Shown here in pieces: positions 2,748-30,740 of a DNA stretch of 64,000 bases. This DNA is from Candidatus Aphodenecus pullistercoris (lineage in GTDB: Bacteria > Spirochaetota > Spirochaetia > Sphaerochaetales > Sphaerochaetaceae): NCBI GenBank assembly GCA_017694495.1, contig JADIMU010000009.1, positions 3,404-67,403 on the forward strand. Reading direction: 5' to 3'. Positions within the stretch are counted from its first letter, which is position 1, and every line of letters begins with the position of its first letter. Below the pieces are notes generated by a model. That model had not been told where the DNA came from. It saw nothing but the letters and a program-made list of their open reading frames with translations, and made no database searches. The translations under genes were made by a program, and so were the position numbers.

Positions 2748-3944
2748 CTAAAGATATTCTTGTGAAGTCTCCTTCAAGTATATGTTTTCCAATGCGGCCC
2801 TCAGGCGGCCCACTATGGTCCGTCTGATGCCGATCTCCACAGGGATGTTGGGATCCTGGTGGGCCTCGTTGATCTTCGTTCCGACGAGGAAGTGGATCTG
2901 GTCGCTGTCCAGAAGGATCTCGACGAACTTGCGCACCGGCGTGTTGGGGAGCGTCGATGGCGGAATCTTCTTCTCAAGCACGTTGGCCACCTGGCTGAGC
3001 GTGAGCATACCCTCCGTGACGAGGTCTATGCCCTCCATCCGGCTGGCAGGAGGCACGTCGGGCGACCAGCAGCTCAGGTCGACCGTGATCTTCGCATTGA
3101 ACAGGCGCGAGACGATCAGGGCCGTCGTACCGCCCGAGACGATCTTGCGCCCGTCGAAGGCGCGGATCTTCTCGCCGAGTATGGCGTCGGACTCCTTGAG
3201 GAAGGGAGGTCCGGTGACAATCAGCGTCTTGCGCGGACGGCGGATGTAGACGACGACCGCCGTGATGTCATCCTTCGAGCACATGCCGTCCAGGCTGTTG
3301 GCCTTCTGGACGATGGCGGCCGACAGCTCGCGCGAGGAGATGTCGGGCTCCTTGGCGATCAGGTCGCGCACGAAGGCCTCGACCCCGCTGTTGCGCCAGC
3401 CGAGGGGCAGGCTCTTGCCAAGACCAGCCTGGGCCACGCCATCGGAGAACATGATCAGCCTCTCGCCTATCTCCATGTTGAAGGAGGAGTACTGTACGAC
3501 CTCCTTCTTGAAGGCGGCCTTGCGCTGGAGCTCGTTCTTCTCCCTCTGCCAGCTTATCTTCTCGGCGTCCTTGAAGCGCAGCGAGAGGGGGTTGTCGTAC
3601 TCCACCAGGCGCACCTTGATGTTCTCCATGTTCTCCTGGTAGTGGATGTCGGCGATCGTGAAGGTCGAGTAGCTGATCTTCCTCTCCTTGCACACGGGCA
3701 GCGTGTTCATGATGATCTCTGCCGAGTGCGAGAGCGAGATCGGAGAGAAGGAGAGCTTGTGGGCCATGTGGGCTGTAAGGGAAGCCAGGACGTTGGCCTT
3801 CACCCCGCTGCCAAGCCCGTCGGAGAGTGTACAGACGATCTGGTTGCTCTCCGGGTTGCGGGAGAGCAGGAAGACATCGCCGCCGATCTTCTGGCCGTGT
3901 TTGTAGATCTGGGCATAATCGACATCGATGAATACGTTGTTCAC
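2748..3944 (-). CDS. SpoIIE/PP2C-family Ser/Thr phosphatase (HfsC-like)
   Basis: GGDVF, LSDGLGSG, FSDGV, DDIT PP2C motifs. Confidence 0.9.
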   Translation of the reverse strand: MNNVFIDVDYAQIYKHGQKIGGDVFLLSRNPESNQIVCTLSDGLGSGVKANVLASLTAHMAHKLSFSPISLSHSAEIIMNTLPVCKERKISYSTFTIADIHYQENMENIKVRLVEYDNPLSLRFKDAEKISWQREKNELQRKAAFKKEVVQYSSFNMEIGERLIMFSDGVAQAGLGKSLPLGWRNSGVEAFVRDLIAKEPDISSRELSAAIVQKANSLDGMCSKDDITAVVVYIRRPRKTLIVTGPPFLKESDAILGEKIRAFDGRKIVSGGTTALIVSRLFNAKITVDLSCWSPDVPPASRMEGIDLVTEGMLTLSQVANVLEKKIPPSTLPNTPVRKFVEILLDSDQIHFLVGTKINEAHQDPNIPVEIGIRRTIVGRLRAALENIYLKETSQEYL

Positions 3945-5734
3945 TCTATATTGTCCTCATCCAGCGTGAAGCCGTCGGTATCCGCCTCCTTCTCGTTGTG
4001 GACGCTGAAGGCGTCGATCAGGCTGTTGAGCATGATCTCGGTCTCTGCGGCGTTCTCGCCGAGCAGCGAGGCGATCTGCTGGACCGTCTCCAGTGACTTC
4101 TGGATGACGTCCTCGGCCTTCTTGACGACGGTCTCCCTGCGAACGGTCGGGTTCGTGATGTCCTCGAACATCGCGCCAAGCAGACGGCCCTCCTCCACCA
4201 GGAAGAAGGTGACGCGCAGGAACTTGTCCTTGTAGTGCAGCCTGTACTGGTTCATCTTCTGGGCGTAGAACTCGTCGTTGAACTTCTGGTAGAAGGGCAC
4301 GAAGCGCTCAAGAGGCAGGCCGCTGACGAGCTGGAGCATGCTCTCGTCGAGCAGCGACTCGTCCATGTCGCCGAAGATCCTGAGGAAGTTGAGGTTGCAG
4401 TCCGCTATGTTCAGGTCCTTGTTCATGATGACGATGGCGTTGGGGATCGTCCTGAGCAGGACGTCGACCTTGCTCTGGGCCTCCTTGCGCATCTTGGTCA
4501 CACACATCTCGACCTCGGCCATGCCGGACAGGTAGGCGATGGCCATGTCGCGGCAGGTGTTGTAGCCGCAGCCGCCACAGTTGAGCTCGTCGGCCTTCTC
4601 CGTCTTGCCCAGCTCGAGGAGGGCCTTTCGGATCTCGTCCTCGCTGAAGTCGCGCCTGATCGGAGCCAGATGCTCCATCTTGGCCGTCTTCAGCAGACCA
4701 TAGCCCTCGCTGAGCACTTCGTCGACGAAGGCGGGATCGGGCTCGAAGAGCTTCTCGCCCCCCTCGAGACGGGCCTGGGTGAACTTCACGACGGCGCTCT
4801 TGCGCTCGGCAAGCGAGACGGACTTGTCGCCGACAGGGCCGTTGATGCATCCGCCCTCGCAGCTGAGGAGCTCGAGGAAGGGCATGTCGTCAGAGAGTTT
4901 GGAGAAGACGGCCTGGATCTCGCCCATTCCGGAAAGTGGGACCGCGTCCTTGTTGAAGGCGCTCGAACCCCAGAGCTTCGAGGTGACGATCTGGCCGTTC
5001 TCGACAGGATAGTAGGCGCTCACGCCTGCCTTGGCGGGGACGAAGGAGAGGGCCTCGGAAGGATCGACCGAATCGAGGCTGAAATGCTCGTCGGCCATCC
5101 AGGTCCTGAGCTCGTCCCAGGTCAGTGCGATGTCGGGATAGCCGGGCGCGATGTCGGCCTCGTTCTTCTTGGCGGCGCAGGGGCCGATGAAGATGATGCC
5201 GATGTCTTCTCCGTAGAGCTTCCTCAGATAGGCGCAGTGGGTCTGCAATGGGGATGGAACCTTGGCGAGGTATGCCGTGTCCTCAGGATGGTACTTCCTG
5301 ACGATCTCGACGACGGAGGGGCATGCTGTGGAAATCCAGGGGCACTTGCCATCGTGCTCCTCGGCGTACTTGTCGATGGCGGCCGAGACGTAGGCGGCGC
5401 CGATGGCGGTCTCACTCACGGCCCAGAAGCCGAGGCGGCGCAATGCGGCAAGCAGCTTCTCCTCCTTGCCGCGGAACTCGCTTGCGAATGAGGGTGCGAG
5501 GGAACAGATGACGCGGTCCTTCGTTCCCATGAGGACCTTGGCGCGGGACAGATCGCTCCTGATCTTCTTCGCGCTGTTGGGACACACTGCCACGCAGCGG
5601 CCGCAGAAGATGCATCTGTCCTTGATGATGACGGCGCTGCCATCCTTGATCTGGATCGCCTTTACAGGACAGGTGCGCACGCACTTGTAGCAGTCGCGGC
5701 AGTTGGTCGTCTCTGTGTAGACGGGATAGAGCAT
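3941..5734 (-). CDS. PAS-domain sensory [FeFe]-hydrogenase, group C (HydS/HfsB-like)
   Basis: N-terminal 2x[4Fe-4S]; STACPSVV, GPCAAKKNEA, ELLSCEGGCING; LNCGGCGYNTC FeS motif; C-terminal PAS-like region. Confidence 0.9.
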   Translation of the reverse strand: MLYPVYTETTNCRDCYKCVRTCPVKAIQIKDGSAVIIKDRCIFCGRCVAVCPNSAKKIRSDLSRAKVLMGTKDRVICSLAPSFASEFRGKEEKLLAALRRLGFWAVSETAIGAAYVSAAIDKYAEEHDGKCPWISTACPSVVEIVRKYHPEDTAYLAKVPSPLQTHCAYLRKLYGEDIGIIFIGPCAAKKNEADIAPGYPDIALTWDELRTWMADEHFSLDSVDPSEALSFVPAKAGVSAYYPVENGQIVTSKLWGSSAFNKDAVPLSGMGEIQAVFSKLSDDMPFLELLSCEGGCINGPVGDKSVSLAERKSAVVKFTQARLEGGEKLFEPDPAFVDEVLSEGYGLLKTAKMEHLAPIRRDFSEDEIRKALLELGKTEKADELNCGGCGYNTCRDMAIAYLSGMAEVEMCVTKMRKEAQSKVDVLLRTIPNAIVIMNKDLNIADCNLNFLRIFGDMDESLLDESMLQLVSGLPLERFVPFYQKFNDEFYAQKMNQYRLHYKDKFLRVTFFLVEEGRLLGAMFEDITNPTVRRETVVKKAEDVIQKSLETVQQIASLLGENAAETEIMLNSLIDAFSVHNEKEADTDGFTLDEDNIE

Positions 5735-6192: not shown

Positions 6193-7041
6193 CTACAGGC
6201 GCCTGATTAATGTTCCACCCTTCTGCCCGAGGACGTCGATGAGCAGGTCGACGGAGGCCGGGTCGACGCTCGCCCCGGCGGTGACGCCAACATCGCAGCA
6301 GGAAATCATTGCATCCTCAAGCTCGGCAGGAGAACCGATCAGCCAGGCCGCCACTCCCCTGTCCTTCGCCAGGCGGTACAGCTCGCTCGTGTTCGCGCTC
6401 TGCCTCTCGCCCAGGACGATGACGCTCTGGCACATGTCGCACAGCTCCAGGACGGCCCGCCTCCTCCTGGAGGATGCGGGGCACACATGGCTGATGATCT
6501 CGTATGCGATGCCACGTCCATCTAGCTCGGCAAGGAGGCGGTCGGCCTTCAGCGTCGAGAATGTCGTCTGCATGATGATGTCGTAGGTCCAGGTCGGATC
6601 CAGGTCATCAAGGTCGCCAAGGTCCTCGACGACACGGATCCAGCCGGCGGCCCTGCTGACTGTGCTCAGCGTCTCGGCATGTTTCCTGAGGCCGAAGAAG
6701 AGCACAGGGAGCTGGGCCTTCGCACAGCGCATGTGGTTGAGCTTGACCAGACGGCATGTGCCGTCGACGAGGGTGAAGCCCGCCTTCTCGTAGGCCTGCC
6801 ACTCATCCAGCGGAATGCCGTGGGCACGGACCAGGGCCAGTCCCGGCTCGACGCCCTCAGGAGAGCCGATCACCTGAAGGCCCCTCTCCTCATAGCGGCG
6901 CACGACCGCATCGTTGTGGACGAGCTTGCCAATCGAGTAGATGGGACGCCGGCTTGAGGCGACGAGCTGGTCGGCCAGCTCGGTCGCACACTGGACACCG
7001 CGGCAGAAACCGTATGTGGATGCGAGATGGATATTGAACAT
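6193..7041 (-). CDS. ispH: 4-hydroxy-3-methylbut-2-enyl diphosphate reductase
   Basis: GFCRGV, LVHND, RAHG, DGTC, VCPAS, SANT motifs. Confidence 0.92.
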   Translation of the reverse strand: MFNIHLASTYGFCRGVQCATELADQLVASSRRPIYSIGKLVHNDAVVRRYEERGLQVIGSPEGVEPGLALVRAHGIPLDEWQAYEKAGFTLVDGTCRLVKLNHMRCAKAQLPVLFFGLRKHAETLSTVSRAAGWIRVVEDLGDLDDLDPTWTYDIIMQTTFSTLKADRLLAELDGRGIAYEIISHVCPASSRRRRAVLELCDMCQSVIVLGERQSANTSELYRLAKDRGVAAWLIGSPAELEDAMISCCDVGVTAGASVDPASVDLLIDVLGQKGGTLIRRL

Positions 7042-20174: not shown

Positions 20175-22910
20175 ATGAGAAAGACCAGCCTTGCCTTCAT
20201 TCTGCTTCTTTCGCTTGCAGCGCTACTTGCCTCTTGCGACCTCGTGCTGCCAGGGAATGACACGCCGCTGAAATACACAGTCACATATTACACCTCGAGC
20301 TTAGGGGACAAGGTCCTGATAGCATACGAATGCAATCTTGGCGACAGGATTCCTGTACCTGCCACCCCTCCTCCGGGCCAGGACCCGTTCTACGGATGGT
20401 CATATTTCACAGAGGATTTCATCCCACTCCACTACGATGACGAATCGCAGATGAAGGTGACAGGCAATCTCATTGCATTCCCGACCAACCCTGTGTACCA
20501 GTATGTCTCGTTCAGCTACATCTTCGAGGGCGACTTCGACAGTGCACAGTCAGAGTACAACTACTTCATCATGGGAGAGGAAATCATGTTCCCGGAGCCG
20601 CCTGAAAAGGAGAACTACACTTTCGCAGGCTGGTACAGGGACCATGAGCTTACTGACAAGGTGGAGGGGACCGAGACCTGCCCTGAGACGGGAGCATTCT
20701 TCTATGGCTACTACAAATCGGACATCCCGATACACACACTGGACTTCGCGGCGATTGGCCGCAAGGATGTTTTCCTCGATGGGACAAGCTTCGTCTATGA
20801 CTACAGCATCCCTTCAGGCCCATCGTCCGAGCCCTTCACTTTTGCCGGCTGGCATTTCGACAGCAGCTCTGGCGAGAGGCTGTATCCGGAGACAGCAATC
20901 ACTAGAGATGCGACAATGTATCCCCGATATGTAGAAGCAGAGATTGTCGACATCCTCGGCACATATTTCCTCTTCAGCAACGGAGACGTCTACAACAGCG
21001 ACACAGAGCGTGTCGAATTCAGTGGAATCTCGGCAATGGCGTACTATAATGGCCATCTCCACCTCTTCAGAGAGGATGGGAAGTACTATCTGGACAACAA
21101 GCTGCCTGACTATCTCCACGAAATCGGCTTAGGGGCAGGAAAAATCATCCAGGCTGACAGTGGCGGGACCTTCCTCGCCATCCTCGATGACAGCGGGCAG
21201 CTCTTCGTCCAAGGCAACATCAGTGGCGGGAGCTCAGTCGGCTCCTTCTCACGCATGGAAGAGACTATCGGCCATGTCGTCCAGATTGATGCCAACAGGA
21301 ACACGCTTGCAATCAAGAACTCGAATGGCGAGCTCTACATGATTGGCGCGTCCCTTGACAGCCTGAACGGCGAATACGATTCATGGACCAAAGTCTTTGA
21401 CGGAGTCAAGGATTTCTCATTGGGCAACTCTGCCATTTTCGTGATAGACGATAACGATGGCCTCTGGTTCAGAGGCGTCAGGAACGACACTTGGCTGCAA
21501 GGCTCAGATGATGTGTCATACGAGTTCATGAAGGTAGGCAGTGGCGTCACAAGTGTTGCAGGCTACCAGGGAGGGGACACTGCCGATGGCAGATGCAACT
21601 ACTACCTCTACACCAAGGACGATGGTGTCTATGTGTACGGCAAACACAATCTCTATGGAACAGGCCTATATGTGGAGGCGGATCCAGAGCAACTGTTCTT
21701 CGAAGGCTTTTCAACTGTGAAGAACTTCAGCAAAGGCTTCGTCTTCTTCGATTCCGATGGCAATCTGTACATGCGCGGCTCTCTGGATGACCTGCCTGTC
21801 GACTATGAGCCGTATGTCGATGAGCCTTTTGCAGTCCTGTCTGGGGAGTCGGTCAAAGAGGTAAGGACATCAAGCTTGACAGGCTTTGCCTTGACCGACG
21901 AGGGAGACCTGTACTACTGGGGGCATGACAACTTCGACATGTTGAACAAAATCCAGGCGACACCAAAACTGATTCTGAATGGAATCAAGACAATCTCGGA
22001 TAGCAGAGCCTTCGCCAACGACGGGACAGTCTATGACCTGAGTTGGTCCAAGGGAGGTAAGCCTGCCATCGAAGACACGCATTCATTCTCCGGGATTGTC
22101 AAGGAAGAAAAAGGAGACTACGCGCTCACGGAAAATGGTGAACTCTGGCATCTCGGCTCATCTGCTTCGTCTGTCTACAAAATCGACGATTCAGTGACAG
22201 ACTTTTTCCTTTATGGAAATTCGCTCTTCGGCTACATCTATGAGGAAGAAGGGAACTTCCTGTACAAGTCAATGGAAGACGGCCTCTCCATCAACAACGT
22301 CATCAAGGCTGTGAAGACATTATATGTGGAGCTTGTCCTCCTCAAAGACGGATCAGTCTACTGGAGAGGGAGCAACACAGGTGACAGTCATGGTCCGCTC
22401 CACCCAAGGGTGGAAGACAGAGCGTACACAGCCAATTTCACCCCGCTTGACGAGTCCAGGACATTCACAGACATTGCTGTAATCGGGGGCAATGCAATCT
22501 TCCTGCTTGATGACAGTGGCCGCCTGCTTGCCTTGGGTGACACAAGGTCCATCGGCTTCGACAGATTCACAAGTGTCAACCCGTATTACGTATGCCTGAC
22601 GAGGGCAGACAGGATTCTCGAATACGGAGAGGACAATATCTCTGACTACATCACCATACAAGACGGCTCAGACTTGTACTTTGTTCTCCCTGAAGTCAGA
22701 GACAATATCATCGACTCGTATGTGGAGGAAGTTTCACATGGACGCTCATACAAGCAGATGACAATGAGTGGAGGCGCATATCTCGCAATCGATGAGGATG
22801 GCCAACTGTGGAGCTGGGGCAACAACAGTGAGGGGCTTTGCGGGAATGGGGAGAGCAGCTATTCGCTGGATCCTGTGCGCATAGACTTCTCGACCTGGAC
22901 CATCAACTGA
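20175..22910 (+). CDS. Surface lipoprotein with InlB B-repeat-like domains and RCC1-like repeats
   Basis: Lipobox LLASC; PEPPEKENYTFAGWY; repeats such as LTDEGDLYYWGHD and IDEDGQLWSWGNNSEGLCG. Confidence 0.8.
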   Translation: MRKTSLAFILLLSLAALLASCDLVLPGNDTPLKYTVTYYTSSLGDKVLIAYECNLGDRIPVPATPPPGQDPFYGWSYFTEDFIPLHYDDESQMKVTGNLIAFPTNPVYQYVSFSYIFEGDFDSAQSEYNYFIMGEEIMFPEPPEKENYTFAGWYRDHELTDKVEGTETCPETGAFFYGYYKSDIPIHTLDFAAIGRKDVFLDGTSFVYDYSIPSGPSSEPFTFAGWHFDSSSGERLYPETAITRDATMYPRYVEAEIVDILGTYFLFSNGDVYNSDTERVEFSGISAMAYYNGHLHLFREDGKYYLDNKLPDYLHEIGLGAGKIIQADSGGTFLAILDDSGQLFVQGNISGGSSVGSFSRMEETIGHVVQIDANRNTLAIKNSNGELYMIGASLDSLNGEYDSWTKVFDGVKDFSLGNSAIFVIDDNDGLWFRGVRNDTWLQGSDDVSYEFMKVGSGVTSVAGYQGGDTADGRCNYYLYTKDDGVYVYGKHNLYGTGLYVEADPEQLFFEGFSTVKNFSKGFVFFDSDGNLYMRGSLDDLPVDYEPYVDEPFAVLSGESVKEVRTSSLTGFALTDEGDLYYWGHDNFDMLNKIQATPKLILNGIKTISDSRAFANDGTVYDLSWSKGGKPAIEDTHSFSGIVKEEKGDYALTENGELWHLGSSASSVYKIDDSVTDFFLYGNSLFGYIYEEEGNFLYKSMEDGLSINNVIKAVKTLYVELVLLKDGSVYWRGSNTGDSHGPLHPRVEDRAYTANFTPLDESRTFTDIAVIGGNAIFLLDDSGRLLALGDTRSIGFDRFTSVNPYYVCLTRADRILEYGEDNISDYITIQDGSDLYFVLPEVRDNIIDSYVEEVSHGRSYKQMTMSGGAYLAIDEDGQLWSWGNNSEGLCGNGESSYSLDPVRIDFSTWTIN

Positions 22911-22917
22911 AAAACGC

Positions 22918-22955
22918 CACTGGGCACCCTTCTCGAGGTGCCCAGTGTGCTTTTT
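22918..22955. terminator. Probable bidirectional terminator
   Basis: Perfect 11-bp stem CACTGGGCACC/GGTGCCCAGTG with A-run left and T-run right, between convergent genes. Confidence 0.85.
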
Positions 22956-22969
22956 GCCTTTGGCCCGGC

Positions 22970-24604
<1,635 letters not shown>

Positions 24605-24706
24605 ATCTATTCTTCTCTCCTTAGACGATATTCAATGCTGTGGTTCTTGCACCATCCGCTAAGATATAGATTCCTTGACCAAACGGCAAGATGCACCTTG
24701 ACAATC

Positions 24707-25540
24707 TCAGACGAAGAGGGAGCCGAGCGACATGCACAGCAGGAAGCTTGCGGCATTGCTCATCAGGTTGACCATGTCGTTGTCGAGGAAGCGTATGCCA
24801 CGCGCGAGCTTGAGGGCCCTGCCCTCCCTGTCGCGGCTGTGCTCCGTGAAGGAGTCCTCCTTCTCGTCGTAGTAGTGGGCCTGGATGGTCGCGCCGAGGA
24901 AGGAGTCGAGAATGACGCCGGCGAAGGCTGACAGCGTCGCGCACAAGGCCAGGGCCAGGGAGGCCCCGCTCCAGGAGGAGAAGGCGAAGATGCCATACAG
25001 CAGGCAGCACAGGAAGGCTGACAGCGTTCCCAGGAGGCTCACACCGCCAGACAGGCCGCGTGGGACCTTGGTGAAGGTCAGGATCGAGACGGGATCCTTG
25101 CGGCTCAGGACGCCGATCTCGCTGGCCCAGGTGTCGCCGCAGGCCTCGCCCAGGCAGGCGGCGAAGACGACTGGAAAGAGGACGGAACCCTCATAGTGGG
25201 CGATGATGATGGCGAGCATGGCAGGCGCTCCGTTCGCCAGCACCTGGATCCAGTCGCGCCGGCCTCCCTTCTTGTGGATCTTCTCCAGTCCCCTGATGCG
25301 CCTGGAGAGCTTGCCTATGATGGCGGCCGAGAGGAGGAAGAAGAGGTAGAGGCTCAGCGCCGTGAAGCCTCCGGCTAGGGTGGAAGCGAGGCCCATGACG
25401 ATGGCGGCGGCCAGTCCGGAGAGCGTCAGCTGACGCTTCCACCAGGCCCACAGGCCGATGATGGCCAGGGCCGCCAGTGCAATCAGGACCCTGTATGCGA
25501 GGGGCAAGGCGAAGTAGTGTCCGTCGAGGAATCTCAGCAC
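24707..25540 (-). CDS. DUF92 membrane protein (VTE6/phytyl-phosphate kinase-like)
   Basis: GGRRDWIQVLANG, DTWASEIG, GGVSLLGT, DSFLGATIQ, DNDMVNL; likely GTG start 25540 overlapping the upstream stop. Confidence 0.85.
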   Translation of the reverse strand: MLRFLDGHYFALPLAYRVLIALAALAIIGLWAWWKRQLTLSGLAAAIVMGLASTLAGGFTALSLYLFFLLSAAIIGKLSRRIRGLEKIHKKGGRRDWIQVLANGAPAMLAIIIAHYEGSVLFPVVFAACLGEACGDTWASEIGVLSRKDPVSILTFTKVPRGLSGGVSLLGTLSAFLCCLLYGIFAFSSWSGASLALALCATLSAFAGVILDSFLGATIQAHYYDEKEDSFTEHSRDREGRALKLARGIRFLDNDMVNLMSNAASFLLCMSLGSLFV

Positions 25541-26178
25541 AGCAATGCTCCCATCAGTGCCGTGAGGATAGGCACTGTGATGTTGTCCAGTCCGAGGGGC
25601 GTCACGGCCTCGAAGAAGCCGGCCACCGCAGCCGCGACGGCGATGGCCCACAGGGGGTATGGCGTGAATATGGCATAGACGATGAGGGAGACGAGGACCA
25701 TGACGGCTGTGCCCTCCCAGCTCTTCGTCGCATTGAGGACGGAATACTTGTGGCGCCCGAAGTGGACGCCGACGAGGGCGGCAAGTCCGTCGCCGTAGCC
25801 CATGACCAGCGTCGCCGCCACGACATCATGGCGTGCGACCAGTCCCCTGTCCCACAGGAGGATCAGGATGAGGATGGAGAACGGGAAGTAGATCAGGCCG
25901 TTGTCGCGCTTGCGGTCACCCATTCCCAGGAGCCTCGCCGCCCCAGAGTAGACGACCAGCGCGTTGACGACGACGAAGAGCGCCAGGCCGGCCATGGCCC
26001 AGTCCAGATTGTCGAAGCAGCCTGTAAGGATGAAGATGGAGTTCGACACGCCGATGTGGATCAGCTTGCGCGTCGCCTCCGCCGGAAGATGGGCCCAGCG
26101 GTGCAGCACGAAGGCGAAGGCCACGACGGCGACGATCATGAGGACCGTGTAGAGGAGTGCCAGAAGGTCGCCTGCCAT
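25534..26178 (-). CDS. CTP-dependent prenol/phytol/dolichol kinase-like membrane protein
   Basis: TRKLIHI, MGYGDGLAALVG, KSWEGT, GLDNITVP; ATG 26178. Confidence 0.85.
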   Translation of the reverse strand: MAGDLLALLYTVLMIVAVVAFAFVLHRWAHLPAEATRKLIHIGVSNSIFILTGCFDNLDWAMAGLALFVVVNALVVYSGAARLLGMGDRKRDNGLIYFPFSILILILLWDRGLVARHDVVAATLVMGYGDGLAALVGVHFGRHKYSVLNATKSWEGTAVMVLVSLIVYAIFTPYPLWAIAVAAAVAGFFEAVTPLGLDNITVPILTALMGALLC

Positions 26179-28007
26179 CACCAGCTCCTCGCCCCACCGC
26201 CGCCGATGCCGCCGCCGGAGAAGCCCGATGATCCGAAGGAGCCTGGGCTGTGGCCCCCGAAGGAACCCACGCCCCTGCCCTGTGGCGGGACGTAGCAATG
26301 GCTGACGAAGCTGTCGTTCATCGAGTGGTAGAGTCTGTGGTAGAAGTAGAAGCTTTCGATGTCGACGGGGCCCGAGTACCAGCTGGCGGGGCGCAGCACG
26401 CAGTCCTCGGCCTTGCGCGCCCACTTCTCCTCGAGGTCGAGGACGATCGCGTAGGAGAGGTTGTGGTAGAAGTAGTCGGGATCCTCGTCGATCATCGTCC
26501 TCAGCTTGTCGACCTCGACCTTCTCCAGAAAGTCCCGGTAGCCGAGGATCTCTCCCAGCACCTGCTGGGCGTAGGGCGAGCGTCGGCTCATGAAGGTCGA
26601 CAGTGCGCAGAGCACCGTCAGACCGGTGGCGACGACGAGGGCCATCATGCGCACCAGAAGGCCGGTCAGCCCGGCCGAAGTCGAGATGCCCGCCTGCAGG
26701 GTGGCGCTGGCCAAAGTGATGAAGGTGGCCAGGGAGTAGCTGACGACGTACTGCGTCCTCGAAGGAATCTTCCTCGTGAGCGTCCAGAAGCAGAGGAAGC
26801 ACAGGAGGAACTGGAAGCCAAGGCACATCAGCGAGAAGAGGCCGTAGCTCAGGTCGTTGATCTCCGAGCATGCCGCCATGAGTGCGGCGTAGAGCGCCGT
26901 GATGGCGAAGGCGAGCACCCTCACTCTCGAGGCCTTGCGGTCGTAGAGGGCGCATCCGCCCTTCTCGAAGTGGAGGCGCAGGCGTGGCGAGACCTTGTCC
27001 ACCACGTCGCTGTAGATGTTCGTCTCCTCGAGCGCGACATCGTCCCCCTTTCTGAAGAAGGCCTGGAAGAGGGCGGCCTCATAGTCGGGGGCAGAGGAGT
27101 CCAGCTCACCCTTCTTGTGGAGGGTGAAGGATCCGTCCTCCCCCTCCTCTATCGTCAACAGGCCCTTGTCGGCCCAGTAATAGAGCATGGCGACATAGTC
27201 GCGGCTGTCGTCGCTCGAGTCGAAGAGGTAGCCGACCTCGAGGGGCGAGAGGTCATGCGGAGGATTGAAGGTGACGACGCTCACAGGCTCGCTGTCGCGT
27301 CCATACTTGTTGTACAGGAAGCCCAGCAATGCGATGAGGCCGACAGTCACGGCCAATGACGTGACGAAGGCGGGCACCGTCCAGTCCCTGAAGGCGAAGT
27401 AGCCGTCAGGAAGCTCCACACGGAGGCTGAGGCTCGAGTCTGGGCCGAGGTGCTTCAGGTGGCCCTTGACGATGCGGCCCTCGTCCACGACGGTCTCGAG
27501 TGGAGTCGTCGAGCCGTAGGCGCCCGTGGTCGCCCAGACCCTGTTGGGGTCTATGTCGGAGGGGAAGGCCAGGGAGAATATGATGTTGTCGACAGTGTAG
27601 TCGCCTGTGGTCCACAGGTCGATGTAGACTTCGTCGAAGCCATCCGCACTGTCGCGCGGAAGCTGGAGGTTGTAGACGATCGTGTAGTCGTGGACGCCTT
27701 CGACGAGGACGTCCGGCGAGCCTATGCGCAATGACACGTAGCTGCTGTGGCTGTCCGCCCAGCGACTCTCCTGCCAGTCCTCGCTGACGGAGACGATGTC
27801 GATGTCGGCGCCGTCGAGGGGAATGTCGCGGTAGAAGCCGTGCGAGGCTTCATGGTAGTCGAGCGTGAGGTTCTCGATGACTGACAGCAGCCCGCCCTCC
27901 GACACCGAGATGTCGAAGTCGGCGCGCACGATGTCGAAGCTCTCTGCGCACAGCAGCTGGCATAAGACCAGGACGAGGATGACGAGGAAGGCCTTCTTCG
28001 TGCTCAA
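26178..28007 (-). CDS. DUF2207 membrane protein
   Basis: Signal peptide, extracytoplasmic beta domain, TMs, GYRDFL, Gly/Ser tail GGGIGGGGARSW. Confidence 0.85.
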   Translation of the reverse strand: MSTKKAFLVILVLVLCQLLCAESFDIVRADFDISVSEGGLLSVIENLTLDYHEASHGFYRDIPLDGADIDIVSVSEDWQESRWADSHSSYVSLRIGSPDVLVEGVHDYTIVYNLQLPRDSADGFDEVYIDLWTTGDYTVDNIIFSLAFPSDIDPNRVWATTGAYGSTTPLETVVDEGRIVKGHLKHLGPDSSLSLRVELPDGYFAFRDWTVPAFVTSLAVTVGLIALLGFLYNKYGRDSEPVSVVTFNPPHDLSPLEVGYLFDSSDDSRDYVAMLYYWADKGLLTIEEGEDGSFTLHKKGELDSSAPDYEAALFQAFFRKGDDVALEETNIYSDVVDKVSPRLRLHFEKGGCALYDRKASRVRVLAFAITALYAALMAACSEINDLSYGLFSLMCLGFQFLLCFLCFWTLTRKIPSRTQYVVSYSLATFITLASATLQAGISTSAGLTGLLVRMMALVVATGLTVLCALSTFMSRRSPYAQQVLGEILGYRDFLEKVEVDKLRTMIDEDPDYFYHNLSYAIVLDLEEKWARKAEDCVLRPASWYSGPVDIESFYFYHRLYHSMNDSFVSHCYVPPQGRGVGSFGGHSPGSFGSSGFSGGGIGGGGARSW

Positions 28008-28552
28008 AACTTCACCTCTGGCCTCCGCCTCTCCTCCTCGCTGGCCTCGATGTAGTCGAGACGGGTGAAGTGGAAGATGGATGCGATGATGGACGAGGGG
28101 AACATCGCGACCTTGTCGTTCATCGTCCGGGCGATGGCGTTGTAGTACTTGCGCGCCTTGAGTATGTCATCCTCGAGGACGGCAAGCTGGCGCTGCAGGT
28201 CCAGAAAGCCGGCGTTGGCCTTCAGGTCGGGATAGCTCTCGGCCAGGGCGAAGAGGCTCTTCAGCGTCCCTGACAGCCTGTCCTCCGCCTTGCCTCTGTC
28301 GGCGCCCTGGCTTCTCATGGCCTCGTTGCGGGCGTCGATGACGTTCGTGAGCGTCGACTCCTCATGCTCGGCGTAGCCCTTGACCGTCTCCACCAGGTTG
28401 GGGATGAGGTCGTAGCGCTGCCTGAGATGGGCGTCCAGGGCACCGAGGGCCTCCTCGGCCCTGTTCCGGGTCCCGACCAGGGAGTTGTAGCTGGCCACCA
28501 CATAGATGACGGCGGCGAGCAGGATGACAAGTATCACAATCAAAACGGCCAT
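28004..28552 (-). CDS. lemA: LemA family protein
   Basis: YNSLV..LRQRYDLIPNLVETVKGYA..ESYPDLKAN..FPSSIIA. Confidence 0.93.
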   Translation of the reverse strand: MAVLIVILVILLAAVIYVVASYNSLVGTRNRAEEALGALDAHLRQRYDLIPNLVETVKGYAEHEESTLTNVIDARNEAMRSQGADRGKAEDRLSGTLKSLFALAESYPDLKANAGFLDLQRQLAVLEDDILKARKYYNAIARTMNDKVAMFPSSIIASIFHFTRLDYIEASEEERRRPEVKF

Positions 28553-28649
28553 GGCTCATCCTCACTGTCCAGAATTCTAGCACAGCTTGCCCCAGCGCTG
28601 GGAGAGGGCCTCTTTTCCACATTCCATCTTGTGCCCGGAGTGGACAGGG

Positions 28650-28680
28650 TGTATATTTGTTGCATAAGAATTGCATATTC
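28650..28680 (+). promoter_or_regulatory. Possible ARG boxes upstream of argR
   Basis: TGTATATTTGTTGCA and TGCATAAGAATTGCA resemble the TGAATAAwwATTCA-type consensus. Confidence 0.4.
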
Positions 28681-28686
28681 CAGGAG

Positions 28687-29163
28687 ATGGCATTGAAGGA
28701 AAGACACAACAGACTTGCAGTGGTCAAGGAACTGATCAAGAACAACAGGATAGACAACCAGGACACGCTCCTCGAGCTGTTGAGGCAGGAAGGCTTCAAC
28801 GTGACACAGGCGACGCTCTCGAGGGATCTGAAGATGCTCAAGGTGGGCAAGATCTCCGACGGCTGGTCGGGCTACTACTACGCCCTGCCCGAGAGCGACC
28901 TCATCAGCGAGAGCGAGAAGAGCTACATCCAGGACGTCAGGAGGGGCATACTCTCCATCGAGTTCAGCGGGAACTTCGGCGTCATCAAGACACGCCCAGG
29001 CCATGCCAACAGCGTATGCTTCGCCCTCGACGTGCTGAACCTGCCGGAGATCCTGGGCTCGCTCGCAGGGGACGACACGATCTTCGTCATCCTGCGCGAA
29101 GGCATGACGAAGGAGGACCTGCTGGAGAGCTTCCAGACCAGGATCCCAGAGATACAGGAATAA
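28687..29163 (+). CDS. argR: Arginine repressor
   Basis: VTQATLSRDLK, KTRPGHA, GSLAGDDTIF; ATG 28687 after CAGGAG. Confidence 0.95.
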   Translation: MALKERHNRLAVVKELIKNNRIDNQDTLLELLRQEGFNVTQATLSRDLKMLKVGKISDGWSGYYYALPESDLISESEKSYIQDVRRGILSIEFSGNFGVIKTRPGHANSVCFALDVLNLPEILGSLAGDDTIFVILREGMTKEDLLESFQTRIPEIQE

Positions 29164-29177
29164 GCAAGGAGAAGAGG

Positions 29178-30740
29178 ATGGAATACAAGAACCTCGACAA
29201 GGCGCTCGCCTACCAGGACCTCGTCAAGCTGGACAAGGTCTCCCTCAAGAACAATCTGACGGTCAAGAGGATCAGGGACTACCAGGCTCCCGCCGGAGCC
29301 GGCCTGACCTACAGCTACGCCGCCATGCCCGTCAACAAGGAGATAATCGACAAGCTCCAGGAGCTGTGCGACGAGCAGGAGCTCGTCGAGAAGTACGTCG
29401 CCCTCCTCTCCGGCGAGATGATGAACCCCGGCGAGAAGAGGCTTGTCCTCCACCAGCTGACCCGCGGCAACTGCACGGGAAGCAAGGTCTACGCCGACGA
29501 TGAGGAGAAGGACGAGTTCTACAGACAGCAGCTGGAGCGCATCAAGGACTTCAGCGGGCGCGTCAGGAGCGGCAAGATCAAGAGCTCGGCGGGCAAGAAG
29601 TTCGACACTGTGTGCCAGATCGGCATCGGCGGCAGCGACCTGGGCCCCCGCGCCCTCTACCTCGCCCTCAAGGGCTGGGCCACAGGTGAAGGCAAGAAGC
29701 AGCTCAGGGCCGAGTTCATCAGCAACGTCGACCCCGACGACGCGGCCTCGGTCCTCAAGACTGTCAACCCCGAGACGACGCTCTTCGTCCTCGTCTCCAA
29801 GAGCGGCACGACGCTCGAGACGCTGACCAACCAGCTGCTCGTCACCCAGACGCTCAAGGGCATCGACATGTCCAAGCAGCTCGTGGCCGTCACGAGCAAG
29901 ACCAGCCCTCTGGCCAAGAGCGATGACGTCCTCGACGCCTTCTACATCGACGACTACATCGGTGGACGCTACAGCTCGACCAGCGCAGTGGGCGGCGTCA
30001 TCCTCTCCCTGGCCCTCGGCTACGACACCTTCGAGGCCCTGCTCAAGGGAGCCCATGAGGCCGACAACAACGCCCTCAACGGAGACATCCGCGAGAACTC
30101 TGCGATGATGGATGCGGCCATCGGCGTCTACCTGAGGAACGTCCTGGGCATGCAGCAGACCGCGATCCTGCCCTACTCCCAGGCCCTTTGCCGCTTCCCG
30201 GCCCACCTCCAGCAGCTCGACATGGAGTCCAACGGCAAGCACGTCAACCGCTTCGGCGAGAGGGTCGGCTACAAGACAGGTCCCGTGATCTTCGGCGAGA
30301 GCGGCACCAACGGCCAGCACAGCTTCTACCAGCTGCTGCACCAGGGCACCGACATCATCCCGATGCAGTTCATCGGCTTCAAGGAGAACCAGTACGGCGT
30401 CGACACCGAGGTCGAAGGCTCGACCAGCCAGGCCAAGCTCAACGCCAACCTGGCCGCCCAGATCGTCGCCTTCGCCCTGGGCAAGGACGACGAGAACCCC
30501 AACAAGGAGTTCGACGGCGAGCGCTGCTCATCGCTGCTGTATGCCGACAGGCTGACGCCCGAAGTCCTCGGCGCCCTGCTCTCCCACTTCGAGAACAAGG
30601 TCATGTTCCAGGGCTTCCTTTGGAACCTCAACTCCTTCGACCAGGAAGGCGTCCAGCTGGGCAAGGTCCTGGCCAAGAAGGTCCTCAAGGGCTGCGAGGG
30701 CGACGAGGTCCTCAAGGCCTACGCCGACATCCTGCTCTAG
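29178..30740 (+). CDS. pgi: Glucose-6-phosphate isomerase
   Basis: GIGGSDLG, SKSGTTLET, GGRYS, QQLDMESNGK, FDQEGVQLGK; true start 29178. Confidence 0.96.
   Translation: MEYKNLDKALAYQDLVKLDKVSLKNNLTVKRIRDYQAPAGAGLTYSYAAMPVNKEIIDKLQELCDEQELVEKYVALLSGEMMNPGEKRLVLHQLTRGNCTGSKVYADDEEKDEFYRQQLERIKDFSGRVRSGKIKSSAGKKFDTVCQIGIGGSDLGPRALYLALKGWATGEGKKQLRAEFISNVDPDDAASVLKTVNPETTLFVLVSKSGTTLETLTNQLLVTQTLKGIDMSKQLVAVTSKTSPLAKSDDVLDAFYIDDYIGGRYSSTSAVGGVILSLALGYDTFEALLKGAHEADNNALNGDIRENSAMMDAAIGVYLRNVLGMQQTAILPYSQALCRFPAHLQQLDMESNGKHVNRFGERVGYKTGPVIFGESGTNGQHSFYQLLHQGTDIIPMQFIGFKENQYGVDTEVEGSTSQAKLNANLAAQIVAFALGKDDENPNKEFDGERCSSLLYADRLTPEVLGALLSHFENKVMFQGFLWNLNSFDQEGVQLGKVLAKKVLKGCEGDEVLKAYADILL

Follow-up and report, generated by a model that had tools for sequence, protein, structure and literature searches.

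Do the four overlapping genes at one locus of the spirochaete Candidatus Aphodenecus pullistercoris (Sphaerochaetaceae) form a single functional system, and on which lipid would their products act? The window, a stretch of 64,000 nucleotides from contig JADIMU010000009.1, contains four minus-strand ORFs at exactly 24707-28552. The first, lemA (28004..28552, 182 aa), has an ATG start with a GAGGA motif upstream and encodes a protein with an N-terminal hydrophobic helix. It is followed by a DUF2207-family membrane protein gene (26178..28007, 609 aa, TTG start), a gene for a VTE5/COG0170-like polytopic membrane protein, the putative CTP-dependent prenol kinase (25534..26178, 214 aa, ATG start), and a gene for a DUF92 (VTE6 family) membrane protein, the putative prenyl-phosphate kinase (24707..25540, 277 aa, GTG start).

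All four genes are joined by overlapping stop and start codons, as had been noted in the initial annotation, which also gave the exact limits. The lemA/DUF2207 junction is TTGA, a 4-nt overlap containing the TTG start of the DUF2207 gene. The DUF2207/kinase junction is TGATG with an overlap of 1 nt (or GTGA, 4 nt), and the kinase/DUF92 junction is GTGCTGA with an overlap of 7 nt. Shine-Dalgarno-like motifs of the GAGG/GGAG type can be read 5-8 nt upstream of all four starts. Most genomes in a sample of 60 Sphaerochaetaceae genomes from 30 genera keep all four genes, and thus these are real genes rather than chance ORFs. No terminator-like sites were found within the cluster or in the 102-nt minus-strand spacer between DUF92 and groEL (24605..24706), and the sole strong terminator-like site lies downstream of groEL at 22918-22947. 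Transcription reading on from DUF92 into groEL is possible. On the other side, lemA diverges from argR (28657-29163, plus strand; PF01316 and PF02863). The sigma-70 consensus has no match in the lemA-argR intergenic region (28553..28656), and thus the operon promoter is only presumed to lie there.

The 214-aa protein has no matches in Pfam or NCBIfam even at E 10; PF01148 is missed altogether and is matched by only one of 20 homologues (E 0.0028). A profile search of PDB sequences found no relatives. Thus the prenol kinase label rests on other evidence, namely the source names of homologues, Atlas neighbours, the fold and a motif alignment. The homologues carry the automatic annotations "phytol kinase" or "diacylglycerol/polyprenol kinase family". 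The top VIA-align match of the AF2 model (pLDDT 91.2) is TmCdsA (4q2g/4q2e; Z 8.4-8.5, rmsd 5.5, 162 aligned residues), a moderate match, as Z values about 8.5 are common for helical bundles and can be reached by chance. Foldseek also gives TmCdsA the highest probability, 0.84, at E 0.07. The C-terminal motif G-D-x-x-A-x(3)-G-x(3)-G-K ... K-S/T-x-x-G, then E...D-N, is invariant in 20 homologues and retained by nearly all of 17 family loci examined; its version in the window is GDGLAAL..G..GK...KS.EG. In hhalign it is aligned with the motif of the genome's own CdsA at E 0.0016, with a low probability of 16%. Within the CTP_transf_1 superfamily (CdsA, dolichol kinase, CarS), CdsA is thus the best, if moderate, structural match to the 214-aa protein, and the C-terminal motif is shared. 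However, the 214-aa protein is shorter and has no match to PF01148.

The DUF92 protein matches PF01940 over profile positions 3-249 of 251 (E 1.1e-60); against TIGR00297 it scores 112, under the cut-off of 206. The DUF92 copies of the family are monophyletic in the tree. The kinase gene directly precedes DUF92 in every genome of the family sample where both were matched on one contig. We also considered 80 DUF92 loci from Bacillota, Mycoplasmatota, Saccharibacteria, Actinomycetota, Fidelibacterota, Thermotogota and other Spirochaetota, three of the 80 coming from the window's own genus. The kinase is adjacent to or fused with DUF92 in 64 of them, and in 20 of these 64 one ORF carries both. About 20 of the best 150 DUF92 representatives have lengths of 478-597 aa and carry DUF92 C-terminally; in the one that was checked, the kinase forms the N-terminal part (40% identity, E 3e-34). 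The kinase and DUF92 genes are a genuine unit, and their coupling is very strong. Their products likely constitute a VTE5-like/VTE6-like pair of prenol kinases acting in two steps. This part of the earlier proposal, which named phytol or undecaprenol as the compound activated, is upheld by the adjacency and fusion, whereas both substrates are unlikely.

In Arabidopsis and Synechocystis, VTE5 is a phytol kinase and VTE6 (DUF92/COG1836) a phytyl-phosphate kinase (PMC9782597); the prediction of VTE6 rested on the prokaryotic gene neighbourhood of COG1836 (PMC3223725; PMC9782597). The same two protein families would act here in the same order. A CdsA-superfamily prenol kinase would turn some free isoprenoid alcohol into its monophosphate, with CTP as the presumed donor, and the DUF92/VTE6-type prenyl-phosphate kinase would add the second phosphate, the two steps that VTE5 and VTE6 carry out on phytol. 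However, the spirochaete host lacks a tocopherol/phylloquinone pathway, and its kinase is too diverged for PF01148. Farnesol and geranylgeraniol are also salvaged through phosphorylation by VTE5-family prenol kinases (PMC9782597; bioRxiv 10.1101/2023.07.17.549440). In particular, the plant farnesol kinase FOLK and the Plasmodium prenol kinase feed exogenous prenols into the FPP and GGPP pools (bioRxiv 10.1101/2023.07.17.549440), which is the role proposed for the spirochaete pair. These two enzymes are eukaryotic, and no second kinase has been identified in Plasmodium, whereas the spirochaete has the gene for the putative second kinase directly beside that for the first, with UppS as the proposed sink.

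Consumers of such a diphosphate were sought in the gene inventory of the genome, which is 98.6% complete. The genome encodes IspH, IspG and Dxr of the MEP pathway, UppS, CdsA and BacA. A search for trans-prenyl diphosphate synthases (PF00348) found none, and in tblastn the FPP synthases of five relatives gave a best E of only 0.17. UbiA and squalene/phytoene synthase (SQS_PSY) were sought in the genome and neither was found. In a search covering UbiA, SQS_PSY and UppS, the last alone is visible as a user of prenyl diphosphates. In the family sample, UppS and kinase-DUF92 are each present in 28/30 genera, and the three genomes of one genus (g2) yielded neither.

The likeliest alternative is that the 214-aa protein is an undecaprenol kinase that replaces DgkA and regenerates C55-P, with DUF92 being accessory or doing something different. 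DgkA (PF01219) was sought in the genome and not found, the superfamily of the 214-aa protein includes dolichol kinase (PMC9782597), the protein co-occurs with UppS, and an undecaprenol reservoir with its kinase is known in Gram-positive bacteria (PMC12345219). The DgkA-type enzyme of Gram-positive bacteria is likewise a membrane kinase returning free polyprenol to the carrier-lipid cycle, but it belongs to an unrelated family and performs one step only. Across phyla, however, the kinase is closely adjacent to, or fused with, a second kinase of the VTE6 type. This implies a diphosphate product, which would be futile for undecaprenol because BacA must then strip the second phosphate. We therefore regard this alternative, and undecaprenol as the substrate of a pair ending in a diphosphate, as unlikely. 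Since the obligatory second kinase indicates that the diphosphate is wanted, a short allylic prenol such as farnesol or geranylgeraniol would be favoured over undecaprenol.

The second alternative is that all four proteins act jointly, a LemA-DUF2207 membrane complex being coupled to two-step prenol activation in one envelope module. The stop/start overlaps couple translation of the four genes in the window's genus, and in 27/30 family genera both pairs share a contig, less than 2.5 kb apart. The gap between the DUF2207 and kinase genes is below 300 nt in 24 genomes of 13 genera, and this compact four-gene operon is confined to genomes without FPP synthase (24/24). In Streptococcus mutans, a DUF2207 gene is directly upstream of uppP, a gene of the undecaprenyl cycle (PMC10457818). 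However, in 25 genomes of 14 genera the gap is 546-2322 nt. All eight gapped loci that were read contain an opposite-strand gene for an RRM RNA-binding protein inside the gap, and some contain further genes. Half of the genera in the family (14/28) have the two pairs separated by an opposite-strand gene. The two pairs are on different contigs in one genus (g15). Two genomes of another (g18) keep pgi-kinase-DUF92-groEL, and lemA-DUF2207 was not found there; g2 keeps lemA-DUF2207, and kinase-DUF92 was not found.

Outside the family the linkage disappears. LemA or DUF2207 genes occur within 10 kb of DUF92 only at the three own-genus loci and at 0/77 others, and neither kinase nor DUF92 was found near LemA in any of 40 loci of other Spirochaetota. 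Among 150 genomes of other Spirochaetota, LemA is present in 102 and DUF92 in two, and in one genome (G145) they are 1 Mb apart. Elsewhere LemA-DUF2207 pairs neighbour unrelated genes (PMC12631010), and the S. mutans DUF2207 mutant is unchanged in sensitivity to cell-wall antimicrobials (PMC10457818). Within the family, the four genes lie inside a conserved argR-pgi/groEL block, with groEL after DUF92 in many genera; as these flanks are also syntenic, the linkage of the pairs looks inherited. The restriction of the compact operon to synthase-less genomes could hint at a real link of the kinase pair with lemA-DUF2207, although phylogeny confounds it, the association with synthase loss tracking one clade. 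The joint action of the four proteins is thus distinctly unlikely. The four-gene cluster is two separate gene pairs, found together only in Sphaerochaetaceae, and the operon is a lineage-specific juxtaposition, as the linkage is not conserved outside the family and the pairs are often split within it. The proposed salvage-plus-envelope module does not stand, and thus no new system is added.

The lemA-DUF2207 pair is an ordinary one. The LemA protein matches PF04011 (E 8e-51, residues 38-182) after the N-terminal membrane helix, the hydrophobic N-terminus being read from the translation, and is a clear member of the family that includes MamQ of magnetosomes. The DUF2207 protein matches PF09972 in its N-terminal part (E 3.3e-13) and PF20990 in its C-terminal part (E 1.2e-26). 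Its N-terminus resembles a signal peptide, and besides the N-terminal domain it has clustered hydrophobic segments and a tail rich in glycine; its Atlas neighbours are all DUF2207 proteins. The two genes travel together, as was anticipated, and their pairing is described in PMC12631010. In the sample, lemA orthologues adjoin DUF2207 across Sphaerochaetaceae, and DUF2207 is present in 56/60 genomes. In other Spirochaetota, 35 of 40 LemA loci have no DUF2207 nearby. SMU.243 of S. mutans is a DUF2207 protein, the family of which the window's protein is a clear member, and the SMU.243 mutant tolerates acid and oxidative stress poorly and is impaired in forming biofilms (PMC10457818). Our best guess is that this widespread, mobile membrane pair may be a membrane or stress-tolerance device.

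Two further alternatives concern the kinase pair. Phytol-specific salvage or detoxification, with phytol coming from dietary chlorophyll in the gut, agrees with the VTE5 and VTE6 homology, with the "phytol kinase" labels of homologues and with the apparent gut or rumen origin of relatives, judging by source names. However, these labels are automatic, the organism is non-photosynthetic, and the genome shows neither a UbiA-type prenyltransferase (phytyltransferase) nor anything else that would consume phytyl diphosphate, so that phytol would lack a visible sink; this makes such a role very unlikely. That the 214-aa protein is a CdsA/CarS-like cytidylyltransferase whose CDP-activated lipid is processed by DUF92 is scarcely credible. 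In its favour, CDP-diacylglycerol synthase alone matches the protein among solved structures and in the motif. However, the genome already has a canonical CdsA gene between uppS and dxr, and kinase activity characterises the studied members closest in size and partner gene, namely VTE5, FOLK and the Plasmodium prenol kinase (PMC9782597; 10.1101/2023.07.17.549440).

We therefore favour, with moderate confidence, two independent two-gene modules, which only some Sphaerochaetaceae have joined in a single operon with translational coupling, with kinase-DUF92 being a prenol kinase pair that would feed the UppS primer from salvaged prenols. Given that UppS is the sole recognisable consumer of the diphosphate and that FPP synthase is lacking, the most likely role would be to provide or supplement the allylic primer that undecaprenyl-diphosphate synthesis requires, with gut prenols as the source. 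The UppS enzymes studied do not use DMAPP, and mutant work in Staphylococcus aureus has recently raised, as an open question, where the primer comes from without IspA (PMC12345219). Kinase-DUF92 is the only candidate primer route visible in the window's genome, and thus the salvage idea is directly testable. On the other hand, the primer role is weakened by Acholeplasmataceae. In 37 of 61 genomes of this family UppS is present and PF00348 is not, and DUF92 occurs in only 8/37; it occurs in 3/6 genomes with PF00348. Thus another route of UppS priming must exist. Sphaerochaetaceae themselves keep kinase-DUF92 with or without FPP synthase, and the two co-occur in 19 of the 25 genomes whose gene pairs are spaced apart. 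Among the genomes without the synthase, some (G008, G016, G018, G029) have the most diverged kinases. The data can be explained without a UppS-primer role.

One extension of the favoured reading is that in synthase-less Sphaerochaetaceae kinase-DUF92 is the main source of the FPP/GGPP primer, that these bacteria depend on exogenous farnesol or geranylgeraniol, and that the operon with lemA-DUF2207 reflects selected co-expression with an envelope module. We consider it doubtful.

A branch of Sphaerochaetaceae and many Acholeplasmataceae thus have UppS without a recognisable trans-prenyl diphosphate synthase. Such bacteria need a farnesyl-type primer for an essential carrier lipid, which is the question raised by PMC12345219, and kinase-DUF92 as the main primer source, if true, would be a natural answer to it. 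Gut spirochaetes would then have a nutritional dependence on prenol salvage that has gone unrecognised, and the VTE5/VTE6 homologues of non-photosynthetic bacteria would gain their first physiological role.

The four genes overlap one another on the minus strand of the window (24707-28552), as the initial annotation had it: the open reading frames and their junctions are in place, and three of the genes match Pfam families. These are lemA (28552-28004; LemA, 8e-51), a gene with both DUF2207 domains (28007-26178) and the terminal DUF92 gene (25540-24707; DUF92, 1e-60). The third gene in order (26178-25534) encodes a membrane protein of 214 amino acids without a Pfam match. The junctions read, in order, TTGA, TGATG and GTGCTGA, and all four starts are preceded by a GGAG-like motif at a distance of 5-8 nt. 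Thus translational coupling is plausible.

Downstream, groEL (region 22918-24604, minus strand) follows DUF92 after 102 nt. The spacer contains no terminator, and the sole terminator-like hairpin, strong and bidirectional, lies 3' of groEL (22918-22947). The groEL gene is solitary, with no groES upstream of it. Convergent to it is a gene for a 911-aa protein with RCC1-like repeats and a Listeria-Bacteroides repeat domain (20175-22910, plus strand). Upstream of lemA, in the divergent orientation, is argR (28657-29163, plus strand; PF01316 and PF02863), followed by pgi, gdh and a DUF1846 gene. A 689-aa ORF (28671-30740) gives the impression of an ArgR-PGI fusion, with PGI extended by 215 aa, but it is an alternative frame that happens to be open: argR lies in another frame as a gene of its own, and pgi comes after it.

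We considered 60 genomes from 30 genera of Sphaerochaetaceae. The gene of the 214-aa protein (below, the kinase) and the DUF92 gene each occur in 56 of them and are directly adjacent wherever both were matched on one contig, the second copies in genus g15 included. DUF2207 is likewise found in 56 genomes, with lemA beside it in the loci read. The gap between DUF2207 and the kinase is below 300 nt in 24 genomes from 13 genera (the compact form) and 546-2322 nt in 25 genomes from 14 genera (the spaced form). All eight spaced loci that were read contain an opposite-strand gene for an RRM RNA-binding protein, and some contain further genes. The two pairs also occur separately. In g15 they reside on different contigs; two genomes of genus g18 retain pgi-kinase-DUF92-groEL, with lemA-DUF2207 not found; and in genus g2 lemA-DUF2207 adjoins pgi, with neither kinase nor DUF92 found. 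The housekeeping flanks argR-pgi and groEL are syntenic across the family as well. Given these gaps, split or single pairs and syntenic flanks, the linkage of the two pairs seems to be gene order passed on by descent, not a functional operon. The lemA-DUF2207 pair is not always contiguous either, since in the g2 locus L018 (G001:C9, 3424-4278, minus strand) an ORF is inserted between its genes, resembling a KsgA/RsmA methyltransferase by its sequence start only.

Among 150 other Spirochaetota genomes, DUF92 was observed in two and LemA in 102. Of the two DUF92 carriers, one (G145) encodes a 488-aa kinase-DUF92 fusion 1 Mb from lemA; the other (G095) has the kinase-DUF92 pair and no LemA match. 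Among 40 LemA loci from Spirochaetota outside the family (L110-L149), five have a DUF2207 partner, and none of kinase, DUF92, BacA, UppS and CdsA was found nearby.

A motif-based scan with a DUF92 alignment sharing DTWASEIG, using one genome per GTDB species, yielded 80 DUF92 loci, each with flanks of 10 kb, from Clostridium, Acetobacterium, Eubacterium, Tissierella, Bacillaceae, Acholeplasmataceae, Saccharibacteria, Gordonibacter, Fidelibacterota, Thermotogota, Delongbacteria and other Spirochaetota. HMMs of the family genes were run against the six-frame ORFs of these loci. They place the kinase next to DUF92 or fused to it in 64 loci, in 20 of them as a single shared ORF. Fusion-length proteins also make up about 20 of the best 150 DUF92 representatives at 50% identity, and the one checked has an N-terminal kinase. 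LemA and DUF2207 occur near DUF92 in three of the 80 loci only, all from 'uncultured Spirochaetales BRZ', the genus of the window, one being the G013 contig. The kinase-DUF92 coupling, which is also seen as adjacency within the family, is as strong as gene-context evidence can be, and to this extent the initial interpretation holds. The four-gene module for polyprenol salvage and the envelope that it proposed does not survive, because the linkage is not conserved, an outcome that the annotation itself had named as refuting it; the operon of four genes is a juxtaposition specific to the lineage. The kinase-DUF92 pair belongs to the VTE5/VTE6-like kind already predicted (PMC3223725, PMC9782597).

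In many loci of Bacillota and Acholeplasmataceae (L030-L052) the kinase ORF and the DUF92 ORF share a frame, with one stop codon between them. Read-through was dismissed, as the stops are a mixture of TAA, TAG and TGA, mostly followed by a ribosome-binding site and ATG; these are ordinary tight gene pairs.

LemA and DUF2207 are plain members of their own families, and we regard lemA-DUF2207 as a membrane or stress module in its own right. Published work offers no mechanism for the two proteins, and such pairs adjoin unrelated genes (PMC12631010). A DUF2207 mutant of Streptococcus mutans is stress-sensitive and biofilm-defective, with unaltered sensitivity to cell-wall antimicrobials; the gene is SMU.243, immediately upstream of uppP (PMC10457818). 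With SMU.243-uppP, DUF2207 adjoins an undecaprenyl-cycle gene in a second, independent case.

Pfam and NCBIfam searches with the 214-aa protein returned nothing even at E 10, and PDB sequence searches, both with the single sequence and with a profile, gave no relevant match. There are 381 homologues at E <= 0.001, mostly unnamed; the others are called 'phytol kinase' by JGI or 'diacylglycerol/polyprenol kinase family protein' by NCBI, and by them the organism falls within the Sphaerochaetaceae. Invariant among 20 aligned homologues are the motifs RK.IHIGVSN, GL.YFP, MGYGDG.A..G...G, KS.EG and E..TP.GLDN.TVP. AlphaFold models the protein with confidence (pLDDT 91). Foldseek found no match to the model at E <= 0.001, the top probability (0.84) being that of a CDP-diacylglycerol synthase, and the top two VIA-align matches are TmCdsA entries (Z 8.5 and 8.4, about 160 residues aligned). 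In hhalign, GDG...GK...KS.EG is aligned with the motif in CdsA of the same genome (E 0.0016, low probability); this canonical CdsA is a separate gene, between uppS and dxr. In the ESM Atlas the 214-aa protein has as neighbours 'polyprenol kinase / phytol kinase' clusters and one 482-aa cluster containing DUF92. The protein is likely a member of the CdsA / dolichol-kinase / VTE5 superfamily, and we infer that it has kinase activity.

In the DUF92 tree the family copies are monophyletic (SH-aLRT 99), the tree being otherwise unresolved. DUF92 from the second pair of g15 (L016; G041:C28, about 3683-5108) clusters with sequences from Thermotogae, Acholeplasma and Saccharibacteria, away from the family copy. 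By these groupings there was one gain of the pair at the base of the family and a further one in g15, where the second pair would be a separate horizontal acquisition.

The genome of the window (98.6% complete) contains the MEP-pathway genes for IspH (about 6235-7032 of the window, minus strand), IspG and Dxr, and also UppS and BacA. The polyprenyl synthase family PF00348 is absent from it and present in all 14 control genomes, and tblastn with FPP synthases from five relatives gave no match (best E 0.17). UbiA, squalene/phytoene synthase and DgkA were not found in this genome either. PF00348 was observed in 146 of the 150 other Spirochaetota genomes versus 22 of the 60 family genomes (12 of 30 genera); the 38 family genomes that lack it, versus four others, include closed and 99-100% complete ones. 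UppS occurs in 55 of the 60; in the three genomes of g2, neither UppS nor the kinase, DUF92 or the synthase was found. The compact form is confined to synthase-less genomes (24/24), and 19 of the 25 genomes with the spaced form have the synthase. In the PGI tree the genera with the synthase fall into a single clade (SH-aLRT 85), and thus this association reflects one or few events, not independent replication. Multiple independent losses of FPP synthase cannot be claimed from one clade of the PGI tree and an unresolved DUF92 tree.

For a kinase-DUF92 pair whose end product is a diphosphate, short allylic prenols are a better fit than undecaprenol, and among the families searched (UbiA, squalene/phytoene synthase and UppS) UppS is the sole recognisable consumer of prenyl diphosphates in the genome. 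Because of this end product and this consumer, our working model is primer salvage: the pair would convert salvaged farnesol or geranylgeraniol to FPP or GGPP, which in turn would prime UppS. The priming of UppS in the absence of IspA is a topical question, and the UppS enzymes studied so far reject DMAPP (PMC12345219).

Among 50 DUF92-bearing genomes outside the family, ten lack PF00348: nine Acholeplasmataceae/Mycoplasmatota and one Thermotogae MAG. Of five checked, four have UppS and three IspH. In 61 Acholeplasmataceae genomes (G257, G261-G319), UppS was found in 43, the synthase in six and DUF92 in 11, and all 11 DUF92 carriers have UppS. A strict rule that UppS without FPP synthase implies the pair fails here, with DUF92 in 8 of the 37 genomes having UppS and no synthase, compared with three of the six with synthase. 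Hence the pair is not required for UppS-bearing, synthase-less life, and another route of UppS priming must exist; such a route for undecaprenyl synthesis seems to be widespread in Acholeplasmataceae. Primer salvage by the kinase-DUF92 pair is thus a possibility and no more; that the pair is essential as the source of the UppS primer is rather unlikely. The part that deserves experiment is the genome context in which the pair resides, synthase-less and UbiA-less.
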